Assembly (NCBI GenBank): GCA_000171835.1
Contig: ABHC01000013.1
Location: 104,340-168,339, forward strand
Direction: 5' to 3'
Origin: an alpha proteobacterium BAL199
GTDB lineage: Bacteria > Pseudomonadota > Alphaproteobacteria > Thalassobaculales > Thalassobaculaceae
Length of the DNA: 64,000 bases
The number at the start of each line of letters is the position of its first letter. Position 1 is the stretch's first letter. The notes under the pieces were generated by a model that ran no database searches, was not told the DNA's origin, and saw only the letters and a list, made by a program, of their open reading frames with translations. Shown here piece after piece: positions 965 to 50,463 of the stretch. Made by a program: the position numbers and the translations under genes.

Positions 965-1696
965 ATGAGTTGGATCATTCCCATTTCGCGACCGTCCGCG
1001 GCGCAGCACCGCCTCATCTGCTTTCCCTATGCCGGCGGGGGCGCGTCGATCTTTCAGCCGTGGCGTGATTTCCTGACCGACGGCATCGATCTGTTCGCCC
1101 TCCAGCCACCGGGCCGGGAGCGGCGTTTCGCGGAGCCCCCGATCGCCGACCTCCGCGCGTTGGTATCGGCCTCGCTGGACGCGCTCGCCCCCTTGGCGGA
1201 CCGGCCTCTCATCCTGTTCGGGCACAGCCTTGGGGCGATCGTCGCGTTCGAGACGGCACGGGCCCTTCAGGAACGGGGGAAGCCCGCCGCCCTGCTCATG
1301 GTTTCCGGGCGCCAGGCGCCGGATCTACCGTCGCGGCGCAGGCCGATCGCCCATCTCGCGGACGACGCCTTCATCGAGGAACTCGGCCGGCTGAACGGAA
1401 CCCCGAAGGAGGTGCTTGAAACGCCAGAGCTTATGGCGTTACTGATGCCGATGCTGCGAGCCGATTTCACCATCGCCGACACCTACCGACGACAGCCGGG
1501 CGCGCCGTTGTCGTGCCCGATCCTGGCGCTCGGGTCGGAAGACGACGAGTGGATCGACGAGCCCGGCCTCGATGCTTGGCGCCACGAGACGAACGGCGAT
1601 TTCGACATGCGGATTTTTCCGGGCGATCATTTCTATCTGAACCGCTATCTCGACCAACTGGTTCCGTTCCTGTGCGGAGCGGCGCTGAGGCACTGA
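965..1696 (+). CDS. Type II (editing) thioesterase, GrsT/TycF-like alpha/beta hydrolase
   Basis: 243 aa with N-terminal FPYAGGGASIF, nucleophile elbow GHSLGA and C-terminal GDHF, the hallmarks of the PKS/NRPS-associated TE-II family. First gene of the operon. Confidence 0.85.
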   Translation: MSWIIPISRPSAAQHRLICFPYAGGGASIFQPWRDFLTDGIDLFALQPPGRERRFAEPPIADLRALVSASLDALAPLADRPLILFGHSLGAIVAFETARALQERGKPAALLMVSGRQAPDLPSRRRPIAHLADDAFIEELGRLNGTPKEVLETPELMALLMPMLRADFTIADTYRRQPGAPLSCPILALGSEDDEWIDEPGLDAWRHETNGDFDMRIFPGDHFYLNRYLDQLVPFLCGAALRH

Positions 1697-1701
1697 GGCC
1701 G

Positions 1702-2487
1702 ATGTCGAGCGCCGCACTTCAGGACGTCGATCCGGCGCCGGGCGGAGATGCCGGCTGGCCGCGGAGGGAGCCGGTGGCGGGCGTGCCGGCGCCTGGTCTT
1801 GTTCAGTGCTGGCGGATTGTGGTTTCGAGCTTGGATCCGGCGGATCTCGGCGGTTTGTCGCAGGATCTCGACCCGCTGGAACACGCGCGGGCCGGGCGGT
1901 TCCACCGGTTCGAGGATCGCCGCCGGTTCATCGCCGGGCGGGTTGGGATTCGGCGATTGTTGAGTGCCGCTTTGGGCTCGGCTCCGGTTTTGTCGAGCGA
2001 CGGTTTCGGCAAGCCGTTCTGCGCCGATCGGTCGGTTGAGTTCAACATTTCCCACAGCGGCGATGTGGTTCTGGTGGCTTTGGCGGCGGGATTTCAGGTT
2101 GGAATCGATGTGGAGCGCCAGGATCCGATTTCGGATATGGCGGCGACTTGGCGGCGGAATTTCCATCCGGGAGAGGTCGCCGAATTGGACAGATTGGACA
2201 AAGATGAGGCCCTTTTCGGCTTTTTGAGATGTTGGACACGCAAGGAAGCGGTGTCCAAGGCGCTGGGCGTCGGGCTGTCGATGGCATTGGACAGCTTCCA
2301 GGTGTCCACCCGGGCGGGAGAGCCGCCACGCCTGCTCACCCTGCCCCCGGACATGGACACCCGGTGGAGCCTGCGCGATCTCCACCCCGCAGCCGGCTAC
2401 ACAGCGGCATTTGCCGCCCCCGTCCAGGACCTGACGATCACCTGCGCAACCCTGGACCTGGGCAACGGCCGCAGGGGGCGTCCATGA
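1702..2487 (+). CDS. 4'-phosphopantetheinyl transferase, Sfp-type
   Basis: Motifs VGIDVERQDP and WTRKEAVSKALG (W/FxxKEAxxK). ATG lies 5 nt after the TE-II stop and is preceded by GAGG. The track ORF 1513 start overlaps the TE gene and was rejected. The stop TGA (2485-2487) overlaps the next gene's ATG (2484) as ATGA. Confidence 0.8.
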   Translation: MSSAALQDVDPAPGGDAGWPRREPVAGVPAPGLVQCWRIVVSSLDPADLGGLSQDLDPLEHARAGRFHRFEDRRRFIAGRVGIRRLLSAALGSAPVLSSDGFGKPFCADRSVEFNISHSGDVVLVALAAGFQVGIDVERQDPISDMAATWRRNFHPGEVAELDRLDKDEALFGFLRCWTRKEAVSKALGVGLSMALDSFQVSTRAGEPPRLLTLPPDMDTRWSLRDLHPAAGYTAAFAAPVQDLTITCATLDLGNGRRGRP

Positions 2488-4250
2488 GCGCGTCCCAGCC
2501 CCAATCACTCGCCGGCCTGCTGCTCGACCGCGCCGATCGCGCCACTGGCTCGATCACGGTGATCCAGGGCGCGGAGGCGGAGCAGGTCCGCACCCCGGCC
2601 GACCTGCGCGCCGATGCCCTGTCGGTTCTCGGATCGCTCCAGGTGCGCGGGCTTTCGCCCGGCGCCGAGGTGGTGATCTCCGTCGCCGATCCGCACGCGT
2701 TCGTCACCGCGTTCTGGGCCTGCATCCTGGGCCGGATGATCGCCATCCCGGTCCAGACGCCGACAACCGACGAACATCGCCTGAAGCTGACCCGTATCCG
2801 CGACCATCTGGGCCAGTCCTTCCTGATCACCGACCGGCCGGACCTGGCCGCGGAGACCGACGCGGCGGATATCGCCACGCTGTGCGACGGCACCAGCCCC
2901 GCCGGGACCGTCGACCGCGAAGCCGAACCGAACGACATCGCGTTCGTGCAGTTCTCCTCCGGCTCGACCGGCGCGCCCAAGGGCGTCGTCCTGCGCCATC
3001 ACCAGGTCTTGACCCACCTGAGCGATTTCGCCGCCAGCGCCCGCATGACGGCCGACGACGTGTTCCTGAGCTGGTTCCCGCTGACCCACGACATGGGTCT
3101 GATCGGCTGGCACCTGATCCCGCTGGCCTTGGGGGCGGACCAGTACCTGATGCCCACCCGGCTGTTCGTCCAGCGCCCCTCGCTGTGGTTGGCCAAGGCG
3201 AGCGCCCACCGCGCCTCGGTCCTGTGCTCCAACAATTTCGGTCTCAAGCACTTCCTGAAGCTGCTGAAGCCGGCGGTCCAGGCCGAGTGGGATCTATCGC
3301 CCGTGCGACTGCTGTTCAACGCGGCGGAACCGATCTCCGCTGATCTCTGCCTGGATTTCCAGGACCGCATGGCACCCTCCGGGCTCGCCCCGGTGGCGCT
3401 AACTCCCGGATACGGATTGGCCGAAGCCACCCTTGGCGTCTCGTTCCCCTCGCCGGGAGAGCCGCTGAAGATCCACAGCACCGACCGCCACCACCTCGGT
3501 TGGGGAGCGACGGTCCGCCCACCGCCATCGGCGCGGGACGAACGACGGCTGGTCGACCTTGGAGCGGCCATGGACGGGGTCGACATGCGCGTCGTCGACG
3601 GTGCCGGCCACATCCTGGACGACCGGGTGGTCGGCTCGGTCGAAATTCGGAGCCGGACCATGACCACCGGCTACTACCGCTCCCCGACGGCGGATGCCGG
3701 CCTGTTCGCGCCGGATGGCTGGCTGCGCACCGGCGACGCGGGTTTCCTGGACGGCGGTCGGCTCGTGCTGACCGGCCGGATCAAGGAAATCATCATCCAG
3801 GCGGGGCAGAACTACGATCCGCACGATATCGAGCGGGTGGCCGAGGAGGTCGACGGGATCGATCTCGGCAAGGTCGTGGCGTGCGGCATCGTCGGCGCCG
3901 CCGAGCAGCCCGAACTGCTTGTCATGTTCGCCCACTCCCGCGTGCCGCTTCAGGATTTCCCCACCCTGGCGCGGACTTTGCGCGAGCATCTGCTGCGCCG
4001 GGGCGGATGGCTGGTGGACCATGTGCTGCCGGTTACCAGCGTGCCGAAGACCACCAGCGGCAAGATCGAGCGATATCGGCTCGCCCAGCGGTTTCTCGAC
4101 GGCGATTTCGACGCGGTGATCGATCAACTCGCCGACTTGGGCGACCAGGGGACGGCGGAAGACGACTGGCGCCGAGCGACCGGGCGGGATCGCCGTCGCC
4201 TGCTGCTCGCCCGCCTGCGCGCCGGGGCCGAGCAGGTCATCGACACCGTG
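2484..4250 (+). other. FAAL (fatty acyl-AMP ligase) loading domain
   Basis: N-terminal AMP-binding superfamily domain followed directly by an ACP and no CoA-ligase context, the typical starter for iturin/mycosubtilin-type lipopeptides. Confidence 0.8.
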
Positions 4251-7200
4251 GGCCTGGCCCTCGACCGATCCCTGTTCGACCAGGGTCTGGACTCACGACG
4301 GGCGGTCGCCCTGCAGCGGTGGTTGGACGCCACTTTCGACGTCGATCTCCCGGTTTCGCTGGCCTTCGACAACCCCACCCTGCTCGATATCGCCAACGTC
4401 ATCGACGGTTTCGATACGGTCGGCAGGGCACCCGACGACACTGGCCGAACGCCCGAACCCTCGCCGGCCCATCCCGGCGCCGGACCGCACCGCGACGAGC
4501 CGATCGCCATCATCGGCATCGGCTGCCGGTTTCCTGGCGGCGCCGACCGGCCCGCAAGCTTCTGGCGCCTGCTGATGGCGGAGACCGATACGACGGGAGC
4601 CCTGCCCGGCGGCCGCGGACAACCGCCGGAGCCGGTGACGGGAAGCTTCCTGTCCGATGTGGCGGGGTTCGACCACCAGTTCTTTTCCATGTCGGTCCGC
4701 GAGGCCGAAGCGTTGGACCCCCAGGCCCGGCTGTTGCTCGAGGTGTGCTGGGAAGCGCTGGAGGACGGCGGTCAGGACATCCCCGCGCTCGCCGGCCAGG
4801 AGGTCGGTGTCTATGTCGGGATCGCGAACACCGACTACGCCATGGCGCAGTTCCACAGCGGCGACGGCGACAAGATTGGCCCCTATTCCTATACCGGCGT
4901 GGCACCGTCCCTGGCGGTCGGACGGGTGTCCCATGCGCTGGGCTTTCAGGGTCCGGCGATGGCGCTAGACACCGCCTGCTCGTCTTCCCTGCTGGCCGTG
5001 CATCAGGCGGTGGAGAGCCTGCGGTCGGGCGATTGCGCCATGGCGCTCGCCGGCGGGGTGAACCTGATCCTCGGCCCCGCCGGCCATCAGAGCCTGACCC
5101 ATCTGGGCGCCCTCTCGCCGACCGGCGCGTGCCGTCCCTTCGACGATCGCGCCGACGGGTACGTGCGGGGCGAAGGCTGTGGGGTCGTGGTGCTGAAGCC
5201 GCTTTCGGCGGCACTGCGCGACGGCGACGATGTGCTGGCCCTGGTGCGCTCCAGCGCCGTCAATCACGACGGCAGAAGCGGCGGGCTCACCGTGCCGAGC
5301 GGGCCGGCCCAGACCCGCGTGATCGAGCGCGCCCTTGACCGCGCGGGCCTCGGCCCCGACGGGATCGACTATGTGGAGGCCCATGGCACCGGCACGCCCC
5401 TTGGCGACCCGATCGAGATCCAGGCGCTGGACCGGGTGTTCGCGGCACAGCCTCCGGGGGACGGCAAGCTTCTGGTCGGATCGGTGAAGAGCAATATCGG
5501 ACACCTGGAAAGCGCCGCCGGGATCGCCAGTTTGATCAAGGTCTCGCTTGCCCTGCGGAACGCCCTGATCCCGCGCAGTCTGCACCACGCCACCCCGAAC
5601 CGGCACGTGGCCTGGGACGGCCTGTCGGTCGTGATCGCCGCGACTCCGACCCCTTGGCCCCGGCGCGACCGGCCGAGGCGGGCCGGGGTGAGCGCTTTCG
5701 GCTTTGCCGGAACCAACGTCCATGTGGTCCTTGAGGAAGCGCCCGACGCAGCCGCCGTCGGACCGGCGGCCGCGCCTGCCGACGGGCCCGCCGAGGGAGC
5801 CGCCGAAGGATCCGCCGAGGGATCCGCCGAGGGATCCATCCGTCTCCCGTCGCTGATGCCGCTATCCGCGGCCTGCGCGGAAGGGGTAAGGGCCCAGGCG
5901 GCGGCGTGGCTGGCCCTGGCGCAGTCGGCGCCGGACGTTTCCGGAATAACGATGGCGGCCACGGCCGCGCGGCGACGCAGTCATCTGCCGCACCGGGCGG
6001 CGATCCGTTTCGACACGCGGGCCGACTTGCTGTCGGGGCTCGAGTCCGTGGCGAAAGGGAGCGCCGCGACCGGCTGCGCGATCGGCCGGCCCCACCCGGA
6101 CCGAGTGTCGCGTCTCGCCTTCGTCTTCACCGGACAGGGATCGCAATGGGCCGGCATGGGCTCGGCGCTGATGGCGCAAGAGCCGGTGTTTCGCGAGGCG
6201 ATGGAACGCTGCGCCGCCCAGATCGACACGCTCGCCGGCGGATCGCTGTTGGACGATCTGGCCCGACCGGCCGAAACCAGTCCGCTCGATCGAACCGATC
6301 GGGCGCAGGCCGGAATTTTCACGATCCAGTACGCCCTGACCACGCTGTTGGCCCATTACGGCGTGACCCCGGACTGCGTGGTCGGCCATAGCTGCGGCGA
6401 GTTGGCGGCGTTTCAGACGGCGGGAGTGATCAGCCTGGAACAGGCGTGCCGGCTGGTCGTCGACCGGGGGGCGTGCATGGAAGCGGCGGCCGATGCGCTG
6501 GGCGAACCGGGGGCCATGGTCGCCGTCCAGGTGTCGCGCGCCGACAGTGCCGACCTGCTGGGCGATGGTCTGGAGATCGCCGCGATCAACAGTCCGAATT
6601 CGGTCGTCCTGGCCGGCCCGACCAGCGCTGTGGACGCGGCCGTCGACACCCTGTCCCACCGATCCATTCCCCATCGCCGGTTGGATGTGGCGTTCGCGTT
6701 CCACAGCCGGCAGATGGACGGGGCGGCGGTCGACTTCGCCGCCCGCGCGGGCGGGATGAAGATTGGCGCGGGCGGGATGGAGATCGGCGCGGACACCATC
6801 GCGGTCTACGCCGCCGCCTGGGGCCGCCGGATGCCGGCGGGGCCGCTGGATGACGACTATTGGCGGGCCAACCTGCGGGAACCGGTGCTGTTCGCCGACG
6901 CCGTAACGGCGATGCGGGATGACGGGACGACCCACTTTCTCGAAATCGGCCCGCATCCGAGCCTGTCCGGGCCGATGATGGAGATCCTGGAAGGGGTGGG
7001 GTCCTCGCCGGTGATCGCCGGTACCATGCGGCGCGACCAGGGACGTGACCAGGGACCCGGCCAGGGACCCGGCCACGGACGCGACGCGGTGCTCGACGGG
7101 CTCGCGGCGCTGTATGTCACCGGGTTCGACCTGCGCTGGGATCGCCTGCATCCGGCGGCGCCGGCCCTGGCGGACGCTCCGCTCTATCCGTGGCGGCGTC

Positions 7201-9047: not shown

Positions 9048-12000
9048 CGCCGCCGCAAGACCAGCAACCGGACATCCACCCGTCCCCGACCGACGAGGTC
9101 GCGGAGCTCGAGGCGGCGTTGGAGCGGTCGCTGCGGGTGATCAACCACCTGGAAGCAGCGCTGGAGCAGCGCGCCGGCGACGCCGGGACAGAGTCGCACC
9201 AACCGGTCGCCATCGTCGGCATGTCTTGCCGCTTCCCCGGCGGCGCCAACGACCCGGCCGCGTTCTGGGACCTGCTCGCCGGCGGACGCGAGGCGCGCGC
9301 CCCCATGGCGGCGGACCGCTGGACCGGCCCCGGCGCCCCGCCGCTGGGCCATTTCCTCGACCGGGTCCCCTACGGCGTCGACGACCGGGTGTTCCGGCTC
9401 TCGCCCGAGGAGATCCGCGGCCTGGACCCGCAACAGCGGCTGCTGCTCGAACTCGCCTTCGAAGCCTTCGAGGACGCCGGCTTGCCGCAAGGCCAGCTCG
9501 AAGGATCGCGCACCGGCGTGTTTCTCGGCCTGGAGAAGGCCGATTTCATCCGCGCCGGACTGTATTCCGGCGATCCCGAGCGGATCACCCCGTATACCGC
9601 CACCGGCATCGCCGGCAGTGCGGCGGCGGGACGGATCTCCTATCTGTTCGACCTGCGCGGACCCTGCCTCTCGCTCGACGCCGCCTGCGCGTCCTCCCTG
9701 GTGGCGGTCGACCAGGCCTGCGCCAGCCTGCGCCGGGGCGACTGCACCATGGCGCTGGCCGGCGCGGTCAGCCTCATGCTGGCGCCGGAGCCGTTCACGG
9801 CCCTGACCCGATTGGGCGCCCTGTCACCGGAAGGCCGCTGCAAGACCTTCTCCGCCGACGCCGACGGCTACGCCCGTGGCGAGGGCGGCGCCATCCTGGT
9901 GCTGAAACCGCTGGCGCAGGCGCAGGCCGACGGCGACCGGATCCACGGCGTGATCCTGGGCAGCGCGGTACGCCACGGCGGGCGCAGCAACGGGCTGACG
10001 GCCCCCAACATGGGCTCCCAGGAAGAGGTGATCCGAGCCGCCCTGGACGACGCCCGCATCGGCCCCGACGCGGTCGACTACCTGGAAGCGCACGGGACCG
10101 GAACGCCGCTGGGCGACCCGATCGAGATGGCGGCCGTGGAAGCGGTGTTCGCCGCGTCCAGACTCGAGGCCGGCAGCCCGCTCGCCATCGGGTCGGTCAA
10201 GACCAATATCGGCCATCTGGAAACGGCGGCGGGCGTCGCCGGGATCATCAAGGTTCTGCTGTGCCTGCGCCACGGGATGCTGCCACCGCATCTGCACTTC
10301 GAGAACCCGAGCGAGCATATCGACTGGCCGTCCCTGCCGGTGACCGTCCCGACCGAGGCCACCGCCTGGCCGTCGTCATCGCCGAGCCGGCGGCGCATCG
10401 CCGGGGTCAGCGCCTTCGGGTTCGCGGGAACCGTCGCCCATGTGGTTCTGGCAGGCGCCCCCGATGGAACCGACATCTGCGAACCGGCGACAGCCGACAC
10501 GACCGCGCTCCCCGACCGGTGCTGGCACCTGGTGACCGTCTCGGCCCGCAGCGAGGCGGCGCTGGCCGCCAATCTCGACGCGCTTGCCGCCCATGTCTCA
10601 CCCGACGACGGCCTGGGCGACGACGGCCTGGGCGACATCGCCCACACCGCCAATACCGGGCGCACGGCGTTCGAGTATCGCGCCGCCGCCGTGGCCAACG
10701 CGGCCAGCGCCCGGCCGGCGACCCTGCCGGCGACCCTGCGCGGACCGGACCTCATGAAAGGCCGATCCGGTCAAGCGGACGCCGGACAGATCGCGTTCGC
10801 GTTCACCGGCCAGGGATCGCAGTACCGGGGCATGGGCCGGGACCTTTACGCGACGTCGCCGGTGTTTCGCGACGCGCTGGATCGCTGCGCCACGCTTCTG
10901 GAACCGGAGCTGGACCGGCCGCTGATCGACCTGCTGTACGGCCCGGCGCCGGACCCGGAGGTGATCGACCGCACCGACTACGCCCAACCGGCCCTGTTCT
11001 CCGTCGGCTACGCCTTGAGTGCGCTCTGGCGATCCTGGGGCATTCACCCGGCCGTGGTGATGGGTCACAGCGTCGGCGAGATCACCGCCGCGCAGATCGC
11101 AGGCGTGTTCTCGCTGGAAGACGCGATCCGGCTGATCGCCGCGCGGGGACGCCTGGTGCAGTCGCTGACGCCGGCCGGCGCCATGGCGGCGGTCTTCGCC
11201 AACGCGGACACGGTCGCGGACCGCCTGAAGGACTTGGACGGCGGCGTTGTGATCGCCGCCCGGAACGCGCCGCGGAACACGGTCATCGCCGGCACGCCCG
11301 ACGCGGTCGCCCATGCCGTCGAGCACCTGCGCCAGGACGGGATCGACGCGCGCGCCCTGTCGGTTTCCCGCGCCTTTCACTCTCCCCTGCTGGACCCGGC
11401 GGTGGCGCCGTTCAGGGACGTGCTGGAGAGCCTGACCTACAACGCGCCGACGATCCCGCTGGTCACAAACCGCACCGGCCGGCTCGCGACCGCCAAGATC
11501 ACAACCGCCGAGATCACAACCGCCGACATCATGACCCCGGACGCCTGGTGCCGGCATCTTCTGGACCCGGTCCTGTTCGAGGACGGCGTCCGAGCCGTCG
11601 CCGAGGCCGGCATCCGGACGGTGATCGAAATCGGCCCGGCGCCGGTGTTGAGCGGTCTGGCCCGGCAGGTCGACGGATCGGACACGGCTCCGATCTGGAT
11701 GCCGTCCCTGATCGCCGCCAGCGAGGGCTGGCAACAGATGCTGTCGACCCTGGGCCAGTTGTACGTCCGGGGTGTCGATGTCGACTGGCCGGGCGTCGAC
11801 CGGGGACGGGTGCGCCGCAGGGTCGACCTGCCCACATACCGTTTCCAAAGAAACCATGCGGAGCCGCCGGCACCCCTCCCCGTTGCCCGCTCGGTCGGCG
11901 CCCTTGCTCGCACAACGCCAGAGGGCCCGGTTTCAGAGGGTCCGGTTTCAGAAGGTCCGGCATTCGACAGCGTTTCGCGCGGGTTCCAAGCCGTCACCAC

Positions 12001-33199: not shown

Positions 33200-33211
33200 C
33201 CAGAAGCCGCA

Positions 33212-38137: not shown

Positions 38138-38147
38138 GTCGCGGGAC

Positions 38148-41100: not shown

Positions 41101-44100
41101 TGGGCGGACACAGCCTGAAGGCGACGCGACTTCTGGCCCGCCTGCGCAAGGCGTTCAGCCGCGATCTGCGCATGGCCGACCTGTTCCAGGAGCCGACGGT
41201 CGCCGGGGTGGCGGCGCGGATCCGCAAGGCCCTGCCCGCATTCGCCGACGCGATCCCCCGTCTGGCCGACGCGGAGTCCTATGCCCTCTCCCACTCCCAG
41301 CGCCGGATGTGGGTGCTGGAGCGGATGGAACCGGGGAGCCAGGCCTACCTGATGCCGGTGGCGTTCCGCCTCGACGGCGCGGTCGACGGAGACGCGCTGC
41401 GCCGGACGATCGACGCGCTGGCGGCCCGCCACGAGGCCTTGCGCACGATCTTTCCGGCCATCGACGGCGCACCGCGCCAGGTGATCCTGCCCGCCGGCCC
41501 CGTCGACATGACCGTCACCGACCGATCCGATGCCATCAACAGCGATGCGGAAGCGGCGGCGGCCATGGCCGAGTTCTTCGCCGAACCGTTCGCGATCGAG
41601 ACATCGGCGCCGTTCCGGGCCGCCCTGATCCGGCTCTCGCCGACGCGCCACCTACTGCTGTTCGCGCTTCACCACATCATCGCCGATGGCGAGACCCTGG
41701 CGATCCTGGAGCGGGACCTGGGCCGGCTCTACCGGGCGATCGCCGACGGCACCGGCCAGGATCCCGGCCCGGATCCCGGCGATCCGCCGGTCCGATACCG
41801 GGATTTCGCCGCCTGGCAGAACGACTTCCTGGCATGGGATGGCGCAGGGGACGGCGCAGGGAACAAAGCCGGGGACAGCCGTGCCTACTGGCACGACATC
41901 CTGTCCGGTGAGATCCCGGCTCTCGATCTGGGGACCGACCACCCGCGCCCCGCGATCGCCGATACCGCGGGCGATTTGCTGACGCTCTCGCTCGACCTTC
42001 GAGAGAGCAATGGCCTGCGCCGCTTGGCCCGCGACCGGGGGGCGACCCTGTTCATGGCGGTGTCGGCCCTGGTGGCCACCCTGCTGCACCGGCGCAGCGA
42101 CAGCGACGACGTGCTGCTCGGCTTTCCGGTGGCAGGCCGCACCCATGGCGACCTGCAGGACGTGGCCGGCATCTTCGTCAACACCCTGGTGCTGCGCCAT
42201 CGCCTGCCGGAGGGCGACGGGCTCGCCGCCGTGATCGATCGGGTGCGCCGGCAAGTCGAGGGCGCGCTGGAGCATCAGGCCTATCCGTTCGACCGCCTGG
42301 TGGACGAGCTTGAGATCCCGCGCGATCCCGGCCGTTCGCCGATCTTCGATGTGTTGGTGACGTTGCAGCCCCCGGTCACCGGACGGCTGAGCCTGGGGTC
42401 CCTCACCGTCACGCCGGAGCCGGTTCCCGCCACCACCAGCCGGTTCGAGCTAGCCTTCGCGTTCACCGATCCGGGCGACGGGACGATCGGCCTGACGATC
42501 GAATACCGCACGTCGCTGTTCGAGCGGCGCGGCATCGAGCGGCTGGCCGATCAGCTTCGCCGGCTGCTGGCCGGCGGCGTCGCCGACCCGCGAAAGCCGA
42601 TCACCCGCCTGCCGATCCTCGGGGCGGAGGATCTGCGGGTGATCGCATCGGCCGCCTCTCCGCCCCTGGCGCCGGTCGAGGACACGATCGTCTCCCTGTT
42701 CCGCCGGCAGGTGGCCCTGACACCGGATCTCCCGGCCCTGGTCGACGGCGACCGGCACCTGACCTACCGCGCGCTCAGCGATCGGGCCGACGCCCTGGCG
42801 ACGCTGCTGAGCGCGCGGGCCGAAACCGGCCCCGACCGGCGGGTCGCCGTGCTGGCCGAGCGGACCATCGACGCCTATGTGGGCATTCTCGGCATCCTGG
42901 TGGCGGGGGCGGCCTATGTTCCGCTCGACCCCGCCCATCCCGACGCCCGCCTGGAAGCCCTGATCGCCGATTGCGCGGCGGTCGCCGTGGTCACCGACGG
43001 CGCGCAGGCGCAACGCGCGCGGCGTCTCACCACGCGTCCGGTGCTGGAGAGCGGCGAAGGCGGGACCCGTACCGAGAGCCCGCCGCCGCCGACCCCCCAG
43101 CCCGATCATCTGGCCTATGTCATCTACACCTCCGGGACCAGCGGGCGGCCCAAGGGGGTGATGGTCGAGCATCGCGCGATCACCAACCTGGCCCGTTGGT
43201 TCGACTGGGACCTCTACGGCCGGTGCGGTACCGGGCTGCGGCACGCGGCGATCGCGGCGCTCACCTTCGATGTGTCGCCCCATGAGATCTGCGGATCCCT
43301 GCTCCGGGGCGACACGCTGTATGTCGTGCCCGAGGAGGTGAAGCGCGACCCGCGTTTGCTCGACCGGTTCATGGCCCGACATCGCATCGAGGTGTTGTGC
43401 ACCACGCCCTCCCTCCTCACCGCCGGCCTCGACGCAGGGTTGTGGGCCGGGGGCTGCACGCTGCGCGTCCTGGGCATCGGCGCCGAGCCGCTCACCCGGA
43501 CGCTGACGGACCGACTGTTCGCGCTCCCCCATCGCGAGGACTTTGCCGTCTGGAACCTGTACGGCCCGACCGAGGCATGCGTCGAATGCATCGTGCATCA
43601 GGTCAAACCGGGGTCCGGACCCGCCGCCGTGCCGATCGGCCGACCGATCCCGGCGACGCGGGTCTATCTGCTCGACACCCATGTGCAACCGACGCCGATC
43701 GGCGTTGCGGGAGAGATCTGCATCGCCGGCATCAACCTTGCCCGGGGATATCTGGGCCAACCGGAGCTGACCCGCGACCGGTTCGTCTCCCTGCCGGACG
43801 ACCCGACCGAACGGATCTACAGAACCGGGGATCTTGCGTACTGGAGACCCGACGGCAGCCTTCATTTCATCGGTCGGCGGGACCATCAGGTCAAGATCCG
43901 CGGCTACCGGATCGAGCTGGCCGAAATCGAGCATCATCTGCTGCGCCAACCGGGTGTGCGCGCTGGCGTCGTGATGCCCTGGGACACCGGCGACGGGGCG
44001 AGCCTCGCCTGCTGGTTCGTGCCGGAGGGAACGCCCGACGTCCCCGCCCTGCGCGAGGCCCTGGGAACCACCTTGCCGGCGCCGATGGTCCCGACCCATT

Positions 44101-47100
44101 TCGTGGCGATGGACGCGCTGCCGCTCAACGCCAACGGCAAAGTCGACCGGGCCGCCCTGCCGCCACCGATGATCGGGTCCGCGACCCAAGGGCTGGATCC
44201 GATCTCGGGACCAACCGAAGCCGCCTTGCACGACATCTGGGTCGAGGTGCTGGGCGACCAGGATGGCGGCCCGAGTTCCGGCCCGCTGTCGTTCGGACGG
44301 CGGGACGACTTCTTCACGGTGGGGGGGCACAGCCTGAAAGCCGTGCGCATCGCCGCGCGCATCCGCGACCGGCTGGCCGTCGACCTTCCCCTGTCGGTCC
44401 TGTTCTCCGCCCCGACCATCGCCAAACAGGCGGCACGGGTGGAGGCGCTGCGGCCGGCGCCAACCGCCGCGACCGCCCCCCCGACGGCCGAGCCCGATGA
44501 CGGTCTATACCCGCTGACCCACGCCCAACGCCGGCTTTGGGCACTCTGCCAGGCCGGTGCGGCGTCCGCCTACGGATTGGCGGCGGCGTTCGAGATTGCC
44601 GGCCCGCTGGATTCCGCGCGCTTCCGGGAGGCGCTGGGCGCCCTGGTCGACCGCCACGAGAGCCTGCGGACCGTGTTTCCAGTCATCGACGGGACACCCC
44701 GCCAACGCGTCCTCGACGCCACGGTGCCGGCGGTGCGGGGACGCGACCTGTCCGACGCACGAGAGCCGGTCGCCGCCGCCGTGGCCGACGCTCACGAGAT
44801 CGCGGCCGAGCCGTATGATCTTGCCACCGGTCCCCTGCTGCGCGTCGCGTTGTGGCGGGTCGGCAGCGATCGTCACGTGCTGCTGATCGCCGTGCACCAC
44901 ATCATCGGCGACGCCGGGTCGCTGGACGTGCTGCTGCACGATCTGACCGCGCTATACGCCGGCGATGCCCTGGCGCCCCTGAGCCGCCAGGCCCGGCACT
45001 TCGCGCTTGAGGAACAGGCCCGACTGGCCGCCGGCGGCGACGAGGTCGCGCGGGATCGCGCCTATTGGCTGGTCAAACTGGCGGGCGAACTGCCGGTCCT
45101 CGACTTCCCGTCCGACCATCCGCGTCCGCCGTTTCGCGATTGGCGGGGCGAAACCCTCGCCCGTCCTCTGTCGCCGGCGGTGACCGCGGGGCTCGACGCC
45201 CTGGCGCGGGCCGAGGGGGCGAGCCTGTACGCCGTGACGGTGGCGCTTGCGAAGGTGCTGCTGCATCGCCATAGCGGCCAGGACGACATCGTCCTCGGCT
45301 CGGTGGTGACGGGACGCGACGGCGCCGACTTGGAGGCTCAGATCGGCTTCTACGTGGAGACGGTCGCGCTGCGCGACACCGTGTCGGGCGACGCCTCCTT
45401 CTCCGCCCTGCTGGCCCGGGTGCGCCGGACCGTCGCGGACGCGATCGACCATCGCCGATACCCGTTCGATCGCGTCGTGGAAGACCTGGCCTTGGCACCC
45501 GACCGGTCCCGCAATCCGATCTTCGACGTGATGCTGGTCTATGAGACTCGCGGAGCGGCGAGGCCGGAGACCGGAAGCTTGCGGGTCTCGCCCCTGGCCC
45601 TCGCGAACCCGGTCAGCAAGCTAGACCTGACGTTCCACGTGAGCCTTGAGGAGGCGGGTCTGCACCTCGCCATCGAGTATCGGCGGGACCTCTACGCCGC
45701 CGATCGCATCACCCGCCTGCTGGCTCAGTTCGAGACCCTGGCCGCCGACCTGATCGCGCGGGGGTCGGCGACCCCGGTGGCCGATCTTCGGTTGCTGAGC
45801 GCCGACGACCGGGCGGCATTGACCGACTGCGTCTCTTGCGGCGGACGCCGGCCGGTAGCGTCCGCGCGGCTGGACAGCCTGTTCGCCGAACGCGCCGCCG
45901 CGATGGCCGACCGCCCGGCGGTGATCACCGGCGATACGGCGTTGAGCTACCACGACCTGGACGCGCTGTCGGATCGTGTTGCGGAGTTCCTGCGGCATCA
46001 CTGCGGGTTGCACGCCGGCGAACCGGTGCTGGTCCGGCTCGACAGGACGCCGCACCTGATCGCGGCGGTTCTGGGAATTCTGAAGGCCGGCGGTGTCTAC
46101 ATGCCGGTGGACCGGCAAACGCCGGCGACCCGCGTGACCGCCGTGCTGAACAAGAGCCGCTGCCGGCTGGCGATCGCCGACACCGCACCGGTCGGCATGA
46201 CCGCCTGCGGCGAGGTGTCCGCCGTCCGGGTCTTCAGCGCCGACGAGCCCCAGCGGGCCGCCGATCGATATGCCGGCTTGGAAGCCGGGCCGGACGGCGA
46301 TCCGCCCGCCTATCTGATCTTCACCTCCGGCTCGACCGGGGAGCCGAAAGGCGTGCTGCTCGGCCATGCCGGCTTCCTGAACATGATCACCTGCCAGATC
46401 GACACGTTCGGGATCGGAGCGGACGACCGGGTTCTGCTGTTCGCCTCGCCCGCGTTCGACGCGTCGATGTCGGAACTGTTCATGGCGTTGCTGGCGGGCG
46501 CGGCCCTGGTGCCGGCGCCGGCCGATACCGTCGCCGACCCCCGGCTGTTCCTGGAGTTGATGGATCGCCAGCGCGTCAGTGTCGCCACCCTGCCGCCCGC
46601 CTACCTCTCGGCCTTGGGGCGCCCGGCGTTGGCTGCGCTGAGGGTGCTGATCACCGCCGGCGAGCCGCCGGTCGACACCGACGTGCGCCACTACGCGCCG
46701 CGTTTGCGCTATTTCAACGCCTATGGCCCGACCGAAAGCTCGGTCTGCGCCAGCATCTTCGAGGTTCCGGCCGCCGGTGTCGGCGCCGACACACCCGTGC
46801 CGATCGGCCGCCCGCTCGCGAACACGGCCATCCATGTGCTGGACCCGCGCCTGGCGCCGGTCCCCATCGGGGTTCCGGGCGAGATCTGCATCGCCGGGGC
46901 GGGCCTGGCGCTCGGCTATGTCGGCGATCCGGCGGAGACCGCGCGGGCGTTCGTCGACTGGAACGGCATCCGGCTCTACCGCACCGGCGATCGCGGGTGG
47001 TGGCGCGAGGATGGCCAACTGGTCTACGGCGGGCGCCTGGACCAGCAACTCAAGATTCGCGGCCAGCGGGTCGAACCGGCGGAAATCGAACGCGCGCTGA

Positions 47101-49655
47101 TGGCGATCGCCGAGGTGGAACAAGCCCTGGTGCTGGCGCAAGGGGACGTGCCCTCACGGCGGGAGTTGGTCGCCTATCTGGCAACCCAGCCGGGAGCCGC
47201 CCCGCTCTCGAGCGCCGACCTGCGAGGCCGGCTGGCCGCGTCCTTGCCCGCCGCGATGATCCCCGCCCACGCGGTCTGGCTGGAGGCGTTCCCCCGCACC
47301 GTCAACGGCAAGATCGATCGCGCCGCCCTGCCCGCACCGCAGGCGACCGAGGACGCCGCTGACGAAGCCCCTCGAAACAGCGCCGAGGAAACCCTGGTCG
47401 ACGTCTTCGCGGCGGCGCTCAGCCGCGAGACCATCGGCATTCACCGGAACTTCTTCGATGAGGGCGGGGACTCCATAAAGCTTCTGCAGATCGCATCGGC
47501 CCTTGGCCGGCGGGGTCTGCGGGTCGAGATCGCCGATGTCTACCGCTATCCCACGGTGGCCGCGCTGGCCGACCGCCTGGCCGCCGCCGGCCCGGCGATC
47601 GATCAGGCCCCGGTGACCGGCCTCGCTCCGTTGACCGCCAGCCAAGCCTGGTTCTTCCGGGAGTTCCGGGGAAATCTCAACCACTTCAACCAATCGGTCC
47701 TGTTGCGCGCGCGCGGACGGCTGGATCCGGCGGCGCTTGACGCGGCCCTGTCGGCGCTGGTGCGCCACCACGACGCGCTGCGTCTGCGGATCGTCCGCCA
47801 TGACGGCCGGGTTTGGCAGGAATTCACCGCCTTGGGCAGCCCGGCCCCGCTGGAGACCATCGACCTGTCCACCACCCCCGGTGCGGCGGTCGGGGAGCTG
47901 ATGACCGAACACGCCAACCGGGTCCAACGCAGTCTTGATCTCCAGGCCGGGCACGTCGTGGCGGCGGCCCTGATGCGGGATCGGGACTGCGACCACCTGC
48001 TGCTGGTCATCCACCATCTGGCGGTCGATGCGGTGAGCTGGCGCGTCCTGTTGGAAGACCTGGAGACAGCCCTGGCCGCCGCGCGGGAGAACAAGCCGGC
48101 CGACCTGCCGGCCAAGACCCATTCGGTGAAATACTGGACCGAACAGGCGGCGTTGGCGGCGGTCTCCCCGGCGCTGATCGAGGAGCGGCCATATTGGGAG
48201 GTGGCACTGGCGGGAGTCCAGAGCGGAACCGAGGCGGCGAATCCCGGTCCGGTCCGTCGACGCGCCAGCCATTCCGCCGCCCTGTCGAAAGTCGAAACCG
48301 ACCGCATCCTCGCCGCCGCGACGGGCGGTGTCGGGGTCGAGGCGATCCTGCTGACCGCTTTCGCGCGGGCCTGGAACCACGAACAGCCGGACCGACCGCT
48401 GGTCCTGATGCTGGAAGCGCACGGGCGGGAGCCGATCGTCGACGGCATCGACGTTGGCCGCACCGTCGGATGGTTCACCAGCCTCTATCCCCTGCGCCTC
48501 GACACGTCGGGCCTGCCCGACGCGCCCGCCCTGGCCGAGGTCACCCGCGTCCTGGCGAATGTGCCGAACCGGGGCATCGGCTTCGGCCTGTTGTCGCAGT
48601 CGGTGGCGATCGGGCGCGCCGACATCGCCTTCAACTACCTGGGTTCGGTCGATGCCGGGGTCGGCTCCGAGATCTTCGAGCCTGGCATGGCGAGCCTTGG
48701 CGACCCGATCGACCCGGACTCCGACAGCCTGTTCGCCCTCGACATCCTCGCCAGCATCCGGGGCCAGGCGCTTGAGGTCTCGCTCGCCCACGACCCGGAT
48801 TGGATGAGCGTGGATATGGCCGACGCCTTGCTGTCACGGATGGCGGATGCGCTGCGGGCACTGGCGACCACATCGATCTCGGTGCCGCCCTTCCCGCGCC
48901 CGACGATCAGACCCTACCGCCGTCAATCGCGCGAGGACGAGCCGCTGCTCCTGAACCAGGGGCGCGGGCGACCGATCTTCGCGATGCCGCCGCTGTTCGG
49001 CTATGGCTCCGCGTTCCGGGGCCTCGCCCGGCTCGTCGACGGGACCGCTGCCTTCCACGGGTTCGACTTCATCGAGGAGGATGATCGGATCGCGCGCTAC
49101 GTCCAGGCGATCGCCGACCGCCGCAGTGGCGAGCCTCCGATGTTGCTGGGCTATTCCGGCGGCGGAAACCTGGCCTTCGCCGTGGCCAAGGGACTGATCG
49201 GCGCTGGCGTCGAAATGGGCGCGCTGATCCTGCTCGACGCCCCGCTGAAACGGCGGGTTCTGGATCAGGCGAGCGACGAGATCCACGACACGATGGCGGC
49301 GAACCTGTCTTATTTCCGCGATCGCATGGCGCACGACGCGGACTACCGGGTCTATGCGGAGGATCCCGTTCTGCACGCGCTGATGCTGCGCAAGATGGAA
49401 GCCTTCACCCGTTATCTTAACGGCCTGATCGACGACGGCAGCATCCCGGCGGACATCCACCTGATACGCTCCAGCCAGGACTGGGCCCAGCGCGAGGATT
49501 GGGATGGGTGGGCCGACCGCACGACCGGCCGCTTCCTCCGCCATCAGGGATCGGGAGAACACGCCCACATGACCGATGACGGCCATGTGGAGATCAACGC
49601 GCGGATCATCGCCGGAATATTAGCCGGAACGGGGACGCCGGATGAGGTTGATTGA
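38148..49655 (+). CDS. NRPS (3835 aa): C-A-PCP | C-A-PCP | C-A-PCP-E-TE (terminal thioesterase)
   Basis: C domains HHHILLDGWC, HHIIADGET and HHIIGDAGS. A domains VYVAYTSGSTGRPKG, AYVIYTSGTSGRPKG and AYLIFTSGSTGEPKG. PCPs GGHSLK x2 and GGDSIK. E domain HHLAVDAVSW. TE GYSGGG (GxSxG). Starts 10 nt after the previous stop. Confidence 0.9.
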   Translation: MLNRQNLKDLYPLSPMQEGMLFHALREPESTAYFEQLSFRMAPTPSRTHISAVWDLLFRRHDILRTVFIHTNAAQPLQAVLKDAPPALHFEDLRGLSDDARERFLADWKESDRLAGFDLTKAPPVRIACFDLGDDGCEIVWSHHHILLDGWCLGILQGEFLEVHRALSAGEQPALPPTTPFSHYIKWLGAREPGAAQDYWSTYLSGYEELATLVPLAEGGAHHPAEHSFTLDAETAQRLRAISVDAGVTPSTLYHALWGLLLGRSLDRDDVVFGSVIANRPEEIPGIEGMLGLFINAVPVRTRWREADSFRDLLTHLHQDMLARRAHEYLPLAEIQAGSEVNRALFDHVVLVQSYPLDQQMVANATVEIAQVELFEHTHYPLAVSITLGETPSLQLGYDRRHLTADAVRRMERQFRDLVALVAEQPNRPIDTLPLAIAAPATVRLAEAAPAETTLVALFETAVRDHGDRVAVSCGGRDLTYRALDAAANEIAWRLLDHTALGPDDRVALIARRSELLPAAMLGIAKAGAAYVPIDPDYPADRIAFRIRDSGCRMVLRLPAPGENLPPACRDAVPADLPVLEVCGDLDGRDAPPPSPPSPGDLVYVAYTSGSTGRPKGVMIEHRNVAAFSATLDAVFGLGQRDTILALTTITFDISVLELLCSLTRGLRVVIASDAVAADPDLILAEIAARGVDVLQATPSRLRNLLDAGGAEPLNRVRVALVGGEKLPPALATLLAGYPGMTAFNVYGPTETTIWSTAQQLATAPLSIGRPLPGETVILLSRNGRPCPVGMVGEICIGGVGLGRGYLGRDDLTAERYITHLLAPGERLYRTGDLGRWREDGELEVLGRGDDQVKVRGHRIEPGEIEAALAACPGVRQAVVATRERNGELELVAWAAGESLDPAPLRDALMRQLPGYMVPGQISALEAMPLLPSGKVDRHRLPEPEIGPAPSAARPRDALETHVADLFADVLEGPAPGLFDDFFALGGHSLKATRLLARLRKAFSRDLRMADLFQEPTVAGVAARIRKALPAFADAIPRLADAESYALSHSQRRMWVLERMEPGSQAYLMPVAFRLDGAVDGDALRRTIDALAARHEALRTIFPAIDGAPRQVILPAGPVDMTVTDRSDAINSDAEAAAAMAEFFAEPFAIETSAPFRAALIRLSPTRHLLLFALHHIIADGETLAILERDLGRLYRAIADGTGQDPGPDPGDPPVRYRDFAAWQNDFLAWDGAGDGAGNKAGDSRAYWHDILSGEIPALDLGTDHPRPAIADTAGDLLTLSLDLRESNGLRRLARDRGATLFMAVSALVATLLHRRSDSDDVLLGFPVAGRTHGDLQDVAGIFVNTLVLRHRLPEGDGLAAVIDRVRRQVEGALEHQAYPFDRLVDELEIPRDPGRSPIFDVLVTLQPPVTGRLSLGSLTVTPEPVPATTSRFELAFAFTDPGDGTIGLTIEYRTSLFERRGIERLADQLRRLLAGGVADPRKPITRLPILGAEDLRVIASAASPPLAPVEDTIVSLFRRQVALTPDLPALVDGDRHLTYRALSDRADALATLLSARAETGPDRRVAVLAERTIDAYVGILGILVAGAAYVPLDPAHPDARLEALIADCAAVAVVTDGAQAQRARRLTTRPVLESGEGGTRTESPPPPTPQPDHLAYVIYTSGTSGRPKGVMVEHRAITNLARWFDWDLYGRCGTGLRHAAIAALTFDVSPHEICGSLLRGDTLYVVPEEVKRDPRLLDRFMARHRIEVLCTTPSLLTAGLDAGLWAGGCTLRVLGIGAEPLTRTLTDRLFALPHREDFAVWNLYGPTEACVECIVHQVKPGSGPAAVPIGRPIPATRVYLLDTHVQPTPIGVAGEICIAGINLARGYLGQPELTRDRFVSLPDDPTERIYRTGDLAYWRPDGSLHFIGRRDHQVKIRGYRIELAEIEHHLLRQPGVRAGVVMPWDTGDGASLACWFVPEGTPDVPALREALGTTLPAPMVPTHFVAMDALPLNANGKVDRAALPPPMIGSATQGLDPISGPTEAALHDIWVEVLGDQDGGPSSGPLSFGRRDDFFTVGGHSLKAVRIAARIRDRLAVDLPLSVLFSAPTIAKQAARVEALRPAPTAATAPPTAEPDDGLYPLTHAQRRLWALCQAGAASAYGLAAAFEIAGPLDSARFREALGALVDRHESLRTVFPVIDGTPRQRVLDATVPAVRGRDLSDAREPVAAAVADAHEIAAEPYDLATGPLLRVALWRVGSDRHVLLIAVHHIIGDAGSLDVLLHDLTALYAGDALAPLSRQARHFALEEQARLAAGGDEVARDRAYWLVKLAGELPVLDFPSDHPRPPFRDWRGETLARPLSPAVTAGLDALARAEGASLYAVTVALAKVLLHRHSGQDDIVLGSVVTGRDGADLEAQIGFYVETVALRDTVSGDASFSALLARVRRTVADAIDHRRYPFDRVVEDLALAPDRSRNPIFDVMLVYETRGAARPETGSLRVSPLALANPVSKLDLTFHVSLEEAGLHLAIEYRRDLYAADRITRLLAQFETLAADLIARGSATPVADLRLLSADDRAALTDCVSCGGRRPVASARLDSLFAERAAAMADRPAVITGDTALSYHDLDALSDRVAEFLRHHCGLHAGEPVLVRLDRTPHLIAAVLGILKAGGVYMPVDRQTPATRVTAVLNKSRCRLAIADTAPVGMTACGEVSAVRVFSADEPQRAADRYAGLEAGPDGDPPAYLIFTSGSTGEPKGVLLGHAGFLNMITCQIDTFGIGADDRVLLFASPAFDASMSELFMALLAGAALVPAPADTVADPRLFLELMDRQRVSVATLPPAYLSALGRPALAALRVLITAGEPPVDTDVRHYAPRLRYFNAYGPTESSVCASIFEVPAAGVGADTPVPIGRPLANTAIHVLDPRLAPVPIGVPGEICIAGAGLALGYVGDPAETARAFVDWNGIRLYRTGDRGWWREDGQLVYGGRLDQQLKIRGQRVEPAEIERALMAIAEVEQALVLAQGDVPSRRELVAYLATQPGAAPLSSADLRGRLAASLPAAMIPAHAVWLEAFPRTVNGKIDRAALPAPQATEDAADEAPRNSAEETLVDVFAAALSRETIGIHRNFFDEGGDSIKLLQIASALGRRGLRVEIADVYRYPTVAALADRLAAAGPAIDQAPVTGLAPLTASQAWFFREFRGNLNHFNQSVLLRARGRLDPAALDAALSALVRHHDALRLRIVRHDGRVWQEFTALGSPAPLETIDLSTTPGAAVGELMTEHANRVQRSLDLQAGHVVAAALMRDRDCDHLLLVIHHLAVDAVSWRVLLEDLETALAAARENKPADLPAKTHSVKYWTEQAALAAVSPALIEERPYWEVALAGVQSGTEAANPGPVRRRASHSAALSKVETDRILAAATGGVGVEAILLTAFARAWNHEQPDRPLVLMLEAHGREPIVDGIDVGRTVGWFTSLYPLRLDTSGLPDAPALAEVTRVLANVPNRGIGFGLLSQSVAIGRADIAFNYLGSVDAGVGSEIFEPGMASLGDPIDPDSDSLFALDILASIRGQALEVSLAHDPDWMSVDMADALLSRMADALRALATTSISVPPFPRPTIRPYRRQSREDEPLLLNQGRGRPIFAMPPLFGYGSAFRGLARLVDGTAAFHGFDFIEEDDRIARYVQAIADRRSGEPPMLLGYSGGGNLAFAVAKGLIGAGVEMGALILLDAPLKRRVLDQASDEIHDTMAANLSYFRDRMAHDADYRVYAEDPVLHALMLRKMEAFTRYLNGLIDDGSIPADIHLIRSSQDWAQREDWDGWADRTTGRFLRHQGSGEHAHMTDDGHVEINARIIAGILAGTGTPDEVD
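48900..49655 (+). other. Type I chain-releasing thioesterase domain (probable macrocyclising TE)
   Basis: C-terminal ~250 aa alpha/beta hydrolase with GYSGGG nucleophile elbow; last domain of the assembly line. Confidence 0.75.
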
Positions 49656-50295: not shown

Positions 50296-50463
50296 ATGAT
50301 CAATTTCGCCCTGGTCGGTTATGTCTGCGTGGCGCTCCTGCTCGCCTTTCTCGGCCGCCGCACGCGGCTGGGACCGATCCTGATCTTCCTGATCTCGATC
50401 CTTCTCACCCCGGTATTCTCGATGATCTATCTGATCGTTACCCGCTTCGAATTCCGTAAATGA
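50296..50463 (+). CDS. Unannotated 55-aa two-TM membrane peptide (MINFALVGYVCVALLLAFLGRRTRLGPILIFLISILLTPVFSMIYLIVTRFEFRK), translationally coupled to the ABC exporter
   Basis: GGGAG Shine-Dalgarno 7 nt upstream of the ATG. The stop TGA (50461-50463) overlaps the ABC transporter ATG (50460) as ATGA. Below the 60-aa cutoff of the track. Confidence 0.45.
   Translation: MINFALVGYVCVALLLAFLGRRTRLGPILIFLISILLTPVFSMIYLIVTRFEFRK

Follow-up and report, generated by a model that had tools for sequence, protein, structure and literature searches.

A hybrid polyketide-nonribosomal peptide assembly line predicted to make a β-amino fatty-acid lipopeptide in the alphaproteobacterium BAL199

Lipopeptides of the iturin, mycosubtilin and bacillomycin family are made by assembly lines of the MycA type, in which an acyl chain is adenylated and placed on an acyl carrier protein (ACP), extended by a ketosynthase (KS), and transaminated at its β-keto group by an in-line class-III aminotransferase (AMT) fused to a condensation (C) domain. 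McyE and NdaF, of microcystin and nodularin biosynthesis, carry a KS-AT-cMT-ACP-AMT-C set (AT, acyltransferase; cMT, C-methyltransferase) that makes a 2-methyl-3-amino acyl unit and passes it to the C domain. Both arrangements have counterparts in a gene cluster of BAL199, a Baltic Sea isolate now termed Thalassobaculum sp. BAL199 (PMC12175539; taxid 331869). The cluster occupies positions 965-49655 of the 64,000-nucleotide stretch of contig ABHC01000013.1 analysed here, referred to below as the window. The defining features of the iturin/McyE working logic that can be tested in sequence are all found in it, and judged by these it has that logic. We think it likely that the cluster encodes a functional hybrid assembly line for a β-amino fatty-acid lipopeptide, with no product assigned; its uninterrupted 8056-aa open reading frame (ORF) and the existence of orthologues with the same gene and domain order are evidence of constraint. 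The machinery belongs to a well-understood class, and what is new is a cluster without an assigned product.

The six genes lie on the plus strand, overlapping or no more than 12 bp apart, as read from a six-frame ORF list, Pfam matches and gene calls on near-identical contigs from other assemblies. In order, they encode a 243-aa type II thioesterase (TE-II; 965..1696; PF00975 at 5.9e-50, GHSLG serine motif, exact match to EDP63589.1 of BAL199), a 261-aa Sfp-type 4'-phosphopantetheinyl transferase (PPTase; 1702..2487; Pfam ACPS and AASDHPPT_N, match to EDP63590.1), the 2187-aa polyketide synthase (PKS) protein PKS1 (2484..9047), an 8056-aa hybrid of PKS and nonribosomal peptide synthetase (NRPS) (9029..33199), and two further NRPS proteins, NRPS2 (1641 aa; 33212..38137) and NRPS3 (3835 aa; 38148..49655; exact match to EDP63595.1). 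From each gene to the next there is first a 5-bp gap, then overlaps of 4 bp and 19 bp, and finally gaps of 12 bp and 10 bp. Such tight or overlapping junctions are the pattern of a single translationally coupled operon, which the six genes fit. Gene calls on the near-identical contigs make the PPTase 261 aa, the 324-aa ORF from 1513 being over-long, and start PKS1 at 2484, overlapping the PPTase stop, rather than at the ATG at 2229. A promoter and terminator scan round the 3' end of the cluster was uninformative. Domain copies were mapped by phmmer with seeds from the window itself, all C-type and all carrier domains were aligned, and the map was read together with Pfam and NCBIfam matches. 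The initial annotation had described a ~49-kb operon of six co-directional, tightly packed genes, running from TE-II and Sfp-PPTase through FAAL-ACP-KS-AT-KR-ACP and KS-AT-cMT-ACP-AMT-NRPS to two NRPSs ending in E-TE (FAAL, fatty acyl-AMP ligase; KR, ketoreductase; E, epimerization; TE, thioesterase), and both the gene layout and the domain order are borne out.

PKS1 begins with an acyl-adenylating domain fused to an ACP (Pfam AMP-binding and PP-binding), followed by a first PKS module; its domains are FAAL (~2559-4109), ACP (4194-4421), KS (4497-5588), AT (6120-7046), KR (7887-8423) and ACP (8694-8933). The best NCBIfam models for the FAAL are long-chain fatty-acid ligase and fatty acyl-AMP ligase, at 289-304 bits, which is under their whole-protein cutoffs. 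An insertion right behind motif A5, present in none of the adenylation (A) domains, fits the FAAL-specific insertion. The active sites of the KS (DTACSS), the AT (GHSCG) and the KR (its tyrosine) are all present.

The hybrid protein opens with a McyE-like PKS module (9200..14998) composed of KS (9200-10300), AT (10796-11719), cMT (12461-12982), ACP (13115-13348) and class-III AMT (13838-14998). The KS has its cysteine in DAACAS and also the HGTGT and NIGHLE motifs, and the S-adenosylmethionine (SAM) motif of the cMT is intact. The AMT matches PF00202 at 5.8e-55, with NF000818 and TIGR00713 as its best NCBIfam models, and bears the motifs DELITGFR and TYGKMIGGG, the latter with the pyridoxal phosphate lysine. 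It runs without a break into the following C domain, as its counterparts do in 47 other loci. A YASH-type motif is found in neither AT, and we take both to be malonyl-specific, so that the acyl unit would be a 3-amino-2-methyl-5-hydroxy fatty acid. The sequence points to a pathway in which the PPTase primes all 13 carriers, while TE-II is able to free those that are wrongly loaded. A free fatty acid would be adenylated by the FAAL and loaded onto the first ACP, PKS module 1 (KS-AT-KR) would add a C2 unit and leave a hydroxyl, and PKS module 2 (KS-AT-cMT-ACP-AMT) would add a second C2 unit, methylate the alpha-carbon and transaminate the beta-keto group, giving a 3-amino-2-methyl-5-hydroxy-acyl thioester. 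FAAL loading, a two-module PKS, an in-line class-III aminotransferase and NRPS modules, the combination on which the initial annotation rested, are thus present domain by domain with their catalytic motifs intact.

Ten NRPS modules would extend this acyl unit. In the hybrid protein the PKS module is followed by C1-deadA-T1, C2-A1-T2, C3-A2-T3, C4-A3-T4, C5-T5, C6-A4-T6 and C7 (T, carrier domain); NRPS2 consists of a half C domain, A5 with an embedded methyltransferase (MT), T7 and E1; and NRPS3 reads C9-A6-T8, C10-A7-T9, C11-A8-T10-E2-TE. The tally is 10 C, 2 E and 10 T domains against 8 working A domains (7 plain and 1 MT-interrupted) and one truncated, dead A domain, and two modules therefore lack a working A domain. 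The 2 E domains and single MT-interrupted A domain first counted in the cluster stand, while the "8 intact" A domains given beside them come to 7, a count of 8 being right only if the FAAL is included. The HHxxxDG motif is present in all 10 C domains and in both E domains, and the carrier serine in all 13 carrier domains.

C1 (15059..16315; HHLIADG) follows the AMT directly, and in the alignment of C domains it is a divergent LCL-like domain. We considered whether it might be a special post-AMT subtype and rejected this: the post-AMT C domains of the 47 other loci, scored against C1-C12, showed no preference for C1, the best match being C6 in 12 loci, C1 in 11 and C4 in 10. By this comparison C1 is merely divergent. 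At the other end of the hybrid protein lies C7 (31832..33139), complete by phmmer and in the C alignment, while in the first 258 residues of NRPS2 the alignment covers a C domain's C-terminal lobe only (HMM positions 193-453; remnant at 33260-33925, aa 17-238), the HHxxxDG half being absent. Since NRPS2 has only this half C domain, C7 must act on NRPS2 in trans, across the protein boundary. The half C domain beside a complete C7 has the appearance of a trace left when a gene was split, or recombined, at a C-A boundary.

The E domains, numbered C8 and C12 in the C series, are E1 (36770-38134; EGHGRE, GWFT, FNYLG) and E2 (47628-48917); both carry HHLxVD, E(G/A)HGRE, GWFT and FNYLG. Model TIGR01720 gives E1 95.4 bits, above its cutoff of 74.2, and E2 45.2 bits, below it. 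T7 (36524-36745) and T10, which precede the E domains, bear a GGDSI-type motif. C9, which follows E1, begins LSPMQEGMLFH and is of the DCL type expected behind an E domain; this start is said to be a DCL marker among the subtype motifs of Rausch et al. NRPS3 ends T-E-TE, in agreement with the E-TE terminus first reported for it, and its TE (48948-49652) has the motif GYSGG.

For the specificity of the A domains, we extracted the ten Stachelhaus positions by alignment to GrsA-PheA, which as a control returned its own code DAWTIAAICK, so the position numbering is valid. The codes are DATKVGEVGK for A1 (18845..20302), DAFWLGGTFK for A2 (22043..23464), DAQDIGAVDK for A3 (25358..26815), DILQLGVIWK for A4 (30083..31510) and likewise A6, DASTIAAVCK for both A5 in NRPS2 and A8 in NRPS3, and DVHCGGLVEK for A7 in NRPS3. 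By published codes we take A1 to be specific for Asn, A2 for Val, A3 for Gln, A4 and A6 for Gly, and A5 and A8 for Tyr. In A7, the Glu at pocket position 331 hints at a residue with a basic side chain.

A5 is interrupted (N-part 33986-35338, embedded MT 35339-36265, C-part 36266-36478). The MT sits between motifs a8 and a9: the A-domain match stops at position 439 of the model and picks up again at 446, ~309 aa further on, the A8 motif GRVDRQIKV standing ahead of the insert and the A10 motif PLTASGKID behind it. Its SAM motif is GPGAQA, within VLEIGPGAQAVL, i.e., GxGxxA in place of GxGxG. According to Lundy et al. 2020 (PMC8341866), GxGxxA characterizes the type III M domains of interrupted-A family 2b, those that O-methylate Tyr. 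Among solved structures the insert matches protein arginine methyltransferases (PRMTs) only (4e-15). A new PRMT-like kind of MT is nonetheless ruled out by the GxGxxA motif and by the a8-a9 position, both matching the published type III M domain. Other NRPS settings also have homologues of the insert, cyanobacterial docking-domain MTs among them. With a GxGxxA MT inside a Tyr-coded A domain, residue 7, the one selected by A5, is most likely O-methyl-Tyr, which E1 would then epimerize.

Taken in order, the modules predict a chain that begins with the 3-amino-2-methyl-5-hydroxy fatty acid and continues ?-Asn-Val-Gln-?-Gly-D-(O-Me)Tyr-Gly-X-D-Tyr, where the question marks are the modules without an A domain and X is the residue of A7. 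The ten C/T modules would add Asn, Val, Gln, Gly, O-methyl-Tyr (epimerized by E1), Gly, the A7 residue and Tyr (epimerized by E2). The terminal TE would then free the chain, probably by macrolactamization onto the free beta-amine as in the iturins. The size of the cyclic lipo-nona/decapeptide initially foreseen should be widened to 8-10 residues, according to the role of the two A-less modules.

Several linkers between the domains are repetitive. Between A2 and T3 a perfect 15-bp tandem repeat, CCACCCCCACACCGG, runs for 9.7 copies (23472-23616) and encodes a Pro/Thr-rich linker; it is 90 bp (6 copies) shorter in two of the near-identical contigs (L001 and L002), matching a gene call of 8026 aa against 8056 aa, and several assemblies break there. 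Further in-frame linker repeats of 12 to 21 bp are found at 5788-5837, 7034-7085, 13604-13653 and 26814-26866.

The closest relatives of the cluster are found in draft genomes and metagenome-assembled genomes (MAGs) of Acetobacteraceae (Acidisphaera, Rhodopila and Roseomonas), at 50-59% identity: Acidisphaera sp. S103 LMUJ01000034.1, Rhodopila sp. MAG HEX4368389.1 and HEX4369074.1, and Roseomonas sp. MAG MDB5370363.1. These clusters share KS-AT-KR-ACP followed by KS-AT-cMT-ACP-AMT-C1-deadA-T1-C2-A(Asn)-..., and a last trimodule of Gly, DVHxxGLVEK and Tyr before E-TE, with a small ORF and the exporter behind. Through homologues of the exporter we reached Acidisphaera sp. S103 and a second genome, whose last NRPS (3776/3777 aa) is 56% identical to and collinear with NRPS3, with identical Gly and Tyr codes, DVHSTGLVEK against DVHCGGLVEK here, and the same T-E-TE end. 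They differ from BAL199 in belonging to another family of Alphaproteobacteria, in having no SPFH gene adjoining the exporter, and in the dead A domain, which keeps a stretch with the A1 motif that BAL199 has lost.

This dead A domain (16316..17209; 298 aa, hybrid aa 2430-2727) is recognizable by phmmer, HMM and code extraction as the remnant of an A domain without its N-terminal third, including the P-loop and motifs A1-A3; motifs A5, A7 and A8 are degenerate, with NxYGPTE now VVAQPTG and GRxDxQVKIRG now GPADAIVHHRS, and the A10 lysine is missing. The carrier behind it, T1 (17210..17431), has an intact serine in LGGDSL. In a profile-free search of the segment against 1.8 billion representative proteins, only three proteins span all of it, a Rhodopila MAG fragment, a Roseomonas MAG fragment and a protein from an ENA contig, with dead A domains 34-44% identical to that of BAL199. 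All three are orthologous pieces of the same line, 50-57% identical to the hybrid protein outside the remnant, and keep the order C1-deadA-T1-C2-A(Asn)-T-C3-A(Val)-T-C4-A(Gln)-T; upstream on the ENA contig are the same KS-AT-KR-ACP and KS-AT-cMT-...-AMT genes. The C1-deadA-T1 unit is kept across genera at 43-55% identity, with T1 well conserved. A metagenome scan with C1-deadA-T1 returned no close relative. The dead A domain and intact T1 are common to the orthologues and therefore old and retained. This is an argument for module 1 remaining in use and receiving its residue from a different A domain, for which the Asn-specific A1 is the obvious candidate.

The second A-less module (27182..28675) is C5 (27182-28459; HHIIGDG) joined directly to T5 (28451-28675; GGHSL). 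We rejected C5 as a dehydrating C(modAA) domain in an AmbE-like T-C-T arrangement, since LCL structures match it far better (Txo2 1.6e-65 and TycC 3.5e-55 vs AmbE 2.8e-18), and it looks like an ordinary LCL domain.

Both modules are most likely loaded by neighbouring A domains that act twice, which would give a decapeptide, bAA-(Asn)-Asn-Val-Gln-(Gln or Gly)-Gly-D-OMeTyr-Gly-X-D-Tyr (bAA, the β-amino acyl unit). A-domain sharing has precedent in the single A domain of yersiniabactin HMWP2 and in the A-less modules of the thalassospiramide lines. A serious but minority possibility is that the A-less modules are passed over or act as relays only, in which case the product would be the lipo-octapeptide bAA-Asn-Val-Gln-Gly-D-OMeTyr-Gly-X-D-Tyr. 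Only 8 working A domains are present, the A remnant is plainly non-functional and more decayed in BAL199 than in the orthologues, which keep the A1-motif stretch, and no trans-acting A domain is visible nearby, with no stand-alone A domain, MbtH or tailoring gene within ~4.7 kb upstream. Set against an octapeptide are the HHxxxDG motifs kept by C1 and C5, the serines kept by T1 and T5, and the conservation of C1-deadA-T1 with its T1 across genera, which argues for continued use; C1 is also the sole C domain placed to take the β-amino acyl chain from the PKS. A bolder form of the decapeptide proposal is that both modules are programmed, single A domains (Asn; Gln or Gly) each charging two carriers, and that the products of BAL199 and its Acetobacteraceae kin form a new family of cyclic decapeptides, iturin-like, with a 2-methyl-3-amino-5-hydroxy-acyl unit and D-O-methyl-Tyr; we regard this as rather doubtful.

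Several observations weigh against a functional assembly line with the predicted chain. Two of the ten modules have no working A domain, and with no stand-alone A domain or MbtH within the window trans-loading has no visible candidate. C7 is forced across a protein boundary by the half-C start of NRPS2, and the specificity readings follow published codes rather than predictor output. The cluster also lies among insertion sequence (IS) elements. To its right are an IS21 element with multiple terminal repeats at both ends (~55439-58065; istB 55561-56316 and istA 56331-57866, minus strand) and an IS256 element with 26-nt imperfect inverted ends (61990-63419; transposase 62046-63323, minus strand). 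Metagenome contigs (L090 3119-3457) carry, 300-640 bp upstream of the window start and in the opposite orientation, 339 bp that match the IS256 end at 91% identity, so IS256 sequence brackets the whole cluster. Finally, a 142-kb contig (JGI 3300072015) has the locus of P0142, an exporter 72% identical to that of BAL199, preceded only by a 693-aa Condensation+Thioesterase gene and 183-aa and 57-aa ORFs, followed by a Band 7 gene, and with unrelated genes upstream. It seems to be a truncated E-TE remnant of the same cluster, which makes decay a live possibility in the lineage.

The GC content of 0.69-0.74 inside the cluster agrees with the ~70% first noted and contrasts with 0.63-0.66 in the right flank; the cluster stands ~5 points above the genome coding average of 65.7% (PMC3851785). 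This difference, together with IS elements on both sides and closest relatives in another family, suggests horizontal acquisition, although NRPS genes are often GC-rich in any case.

These features are what one would also see if the cluster were a decaying, silent relic on a mobile island that makes nothing: an A domain that is dead, a C domain reduced to half, a module of C and T alone, IS256 sequence downstream and just upstream of the window with IS21 nearby, the raised GC content, and a relative that seems to hold only the terminal remnant. We find a relic improbable, since all six ORFs are intact, one of them 24 kb long, all the catalytic motifs examined elsewhere than in the remnant are preserved, and the specificity codes are conserved; the oddities are shared with orthologues at 50-57% identity and are therefore old and tolerated. 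A lipopeptide siderophore, to which the ABC transporter's label in its source record points ("siderophore export system", "pyoverdin transport"), is very improbable and was rejected on gene content: none of the A codes specifies a hydroxamate or catecholate precursor, the window has no gene for a hydroxylase, an N-oxygenase or a TonB-dependent receptor, and the exporter passes the generic cyclic-peptide model TIGR01194.

The functional lipopeptide line we favour would be served by the genes directly downstream. The SyrD-like exporter noted at the outset is present as an ABC transporter for cyclic-peptide export, of the SyrD/PvdE type (50460..52100, plus strand; exact match to EDP63598.1), which scores 346.5 bits with TIGR01194 against a curated cutoff of 286.2. 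Ahead of it is a 55-aa ORF predicted to form two membrane helices (50296..50463, plus strand), its stop overlapping the exporter start (ATGA). It belongs to no Pfam family and shows 53-55% identity and 25 invariant residues with ORFs upstream of the orthologous exporters (L101 9819-10004; L102 9798-10004). It may be an accessory subunit of the exporter, and we propose that the product would be exported by the transporter with this conserved partner. Between the TE and the exporter there is also a 194-aa ORF (49689-50273, plus strand) with a TTG start, a signal-peptide-like N-terminus and no family hit; a 183-aa ORF has the same position in the P0142 locus. The exporter is followed, here and in the P0142 locus, by a gene for an SPFH/Band 7 (prohibitin-family) protein (52028..53494, plus strand), whose membership of the cluster is uncertain; its C-terminal part contains a 15-bp repeat of 7.2 copies with 93% matches (53226-53332).

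Further right, beside the IS21 element, only the last part of a 534-aa ORF (53551-55155, minus strand) matches a family, the molybdopterin-cofactor-binding domain, and it is therefore probably a disrupted oxidoreductase gene. The TpsB also noted at the outset is a two-partner-secretion transporter of the TpsB/ShlB type that has an additional POTRA domain (59518-61761, minus strand); no TpsA partner is found in the window. IS21 lies between this gene and the cluster, and the two are probably unrelated. A further integrase fragment lies in the same region.

Several independent metagenome and read-archive assemblies supplied ten contigs that match the window at 99.96-99.99% identity (near-identical contigs L001-L006 and L089-L093, from ENA ERZ286689xx, ERZ1283866 and ERZ23486378, JGI 33000771xx-783xx and Logan ERR13967259), and for TE-II by itself the index lists 39 blocks. 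This recurrence may reflect a clone that is widespread, or else a culture or laboratory organism that keeps turning up.

To our knowledge, no β-amino fatty-acid lipopeptide is known from Alphaproteobacteria. The family of clusters is also found in acidophilic and freshwater Acetobacteraceae, and its product would define a lipopeptide class for Alphaproteobacteria. A dead A domain with an intact carrier, together with a bare C-T module, is a natural case for one A domain serving several carriers. Our understanding of how such assembly lines work is left unchanged, and orphan NRPS/PKS clusters of comparable size are common. BAL199 is a cultured and publicly held marine strain, and its reported lysis of Acanthamoeba at high cell ratio, alongside decolouring of Euglena (PMC12175539), is a phenotype to set against the orphan cluster. 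That a membrane-active product underlies the lysis and the bleaching is speculation.

The cluster was initially thought to be uncharacterised, and the comparison with known systems agrees: in the literature searched no paper links BAL199 or Thalassobaculum to a lipopeptide, or the cluster to a compound, and its nearest kin are at 50-59% identity. A DNA search of plasmid and megaplasmid records found ~68% similarity over the KS-to-AMT part with hybrid synthetases of Ralstonia and Burkholderia. By tblastn the locus on the Ralstonia pseudosolanacearum GMI1000 megaplasmid, which we take to be the ralstonin/ralsolamycin genes rmyA-rmyB, shows 30-37% protein identity with paralogue-like multiple matches; it is likewise a Gram-negative FAAL-PKS-AMT-NRPS lipopeptide line, but it is non-collinear, without a cMT and with another module set. 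The plasmid locus of Burkholderia sp. FXe9, presumably of the occidiofungin/burkholdine type from its gene content, is 49% identical in the AMT region and 30-44% elsewhere (tblastn). It shares a PKS with an aminotransferase beside NRPS genes and a thioesterase homologue 41% identical to TE-II; its genes are split otherwise, and TauD, SDR and DABA transaminase are present there and absent here. The initial annotation had named a match of at least 80% identity over the full architecture to a characterised cluster as the mark of a known system, and neither the Ralstonia nor the Burkholderia locus shows one, both being non-collinear at 30-49%.

Across 185,579 species-representative genomes, the best ACP-AMT or full-length matches reach 44-46% among the matches listed (37-49% overall), which included neither the source genome nor the Acetobacteraceae orthologues. 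Only three loci among them align through both cMT and AMT, all in Nostoc or Pelatocladus, at 42-44% identity. In the word-indexed protein search, giant NRPS representatives can be 49-aa fragments, so absent matches there mean little.

McyE and NdaF, which share the module around the AMT, use a phenylpropanoid-derived starter where the cluster has a FAAL-loaded fatty acid, and their peptide part is unrelated. Within the genus, Thalassobaculum sp. OXR-137 has, according to a 2025 paper, a "putatively novel" NRPS/PKS cluster with only 6% antiSMASH similarity to any known cluster (PMC12016528). By its published description it begins with a CoA-ligase-type domain, KS, AT and KR, then NRPS modules with MT, E and TE, and adjoins a cyclic-peptide ABC exporter and a prohibitin-family gene, as here; it differs in that 12 NRPS modules and 3 PKS modules are reported, spread over seven ORFs and with two TE domains, in being transcribed divergently from the exporter, and in that an aminotransferase is not mentioned (PMC12016528). 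With the iturin family the BAL199 line also shares a predicted peptide rich in Asn, Gln, Tyr and D-residues and a terminal TE. It departs from that family in its Gram-negative, alphaproteobacterial host, in its T-E-TE end, in having 10 NRPS modules (two without a working A domain) vs 7, and in its two complete PKS modules, each with its own AT, together with a KR and a cMT, so that the lipid should carry 2-methyl and 5-hydroxy groups.

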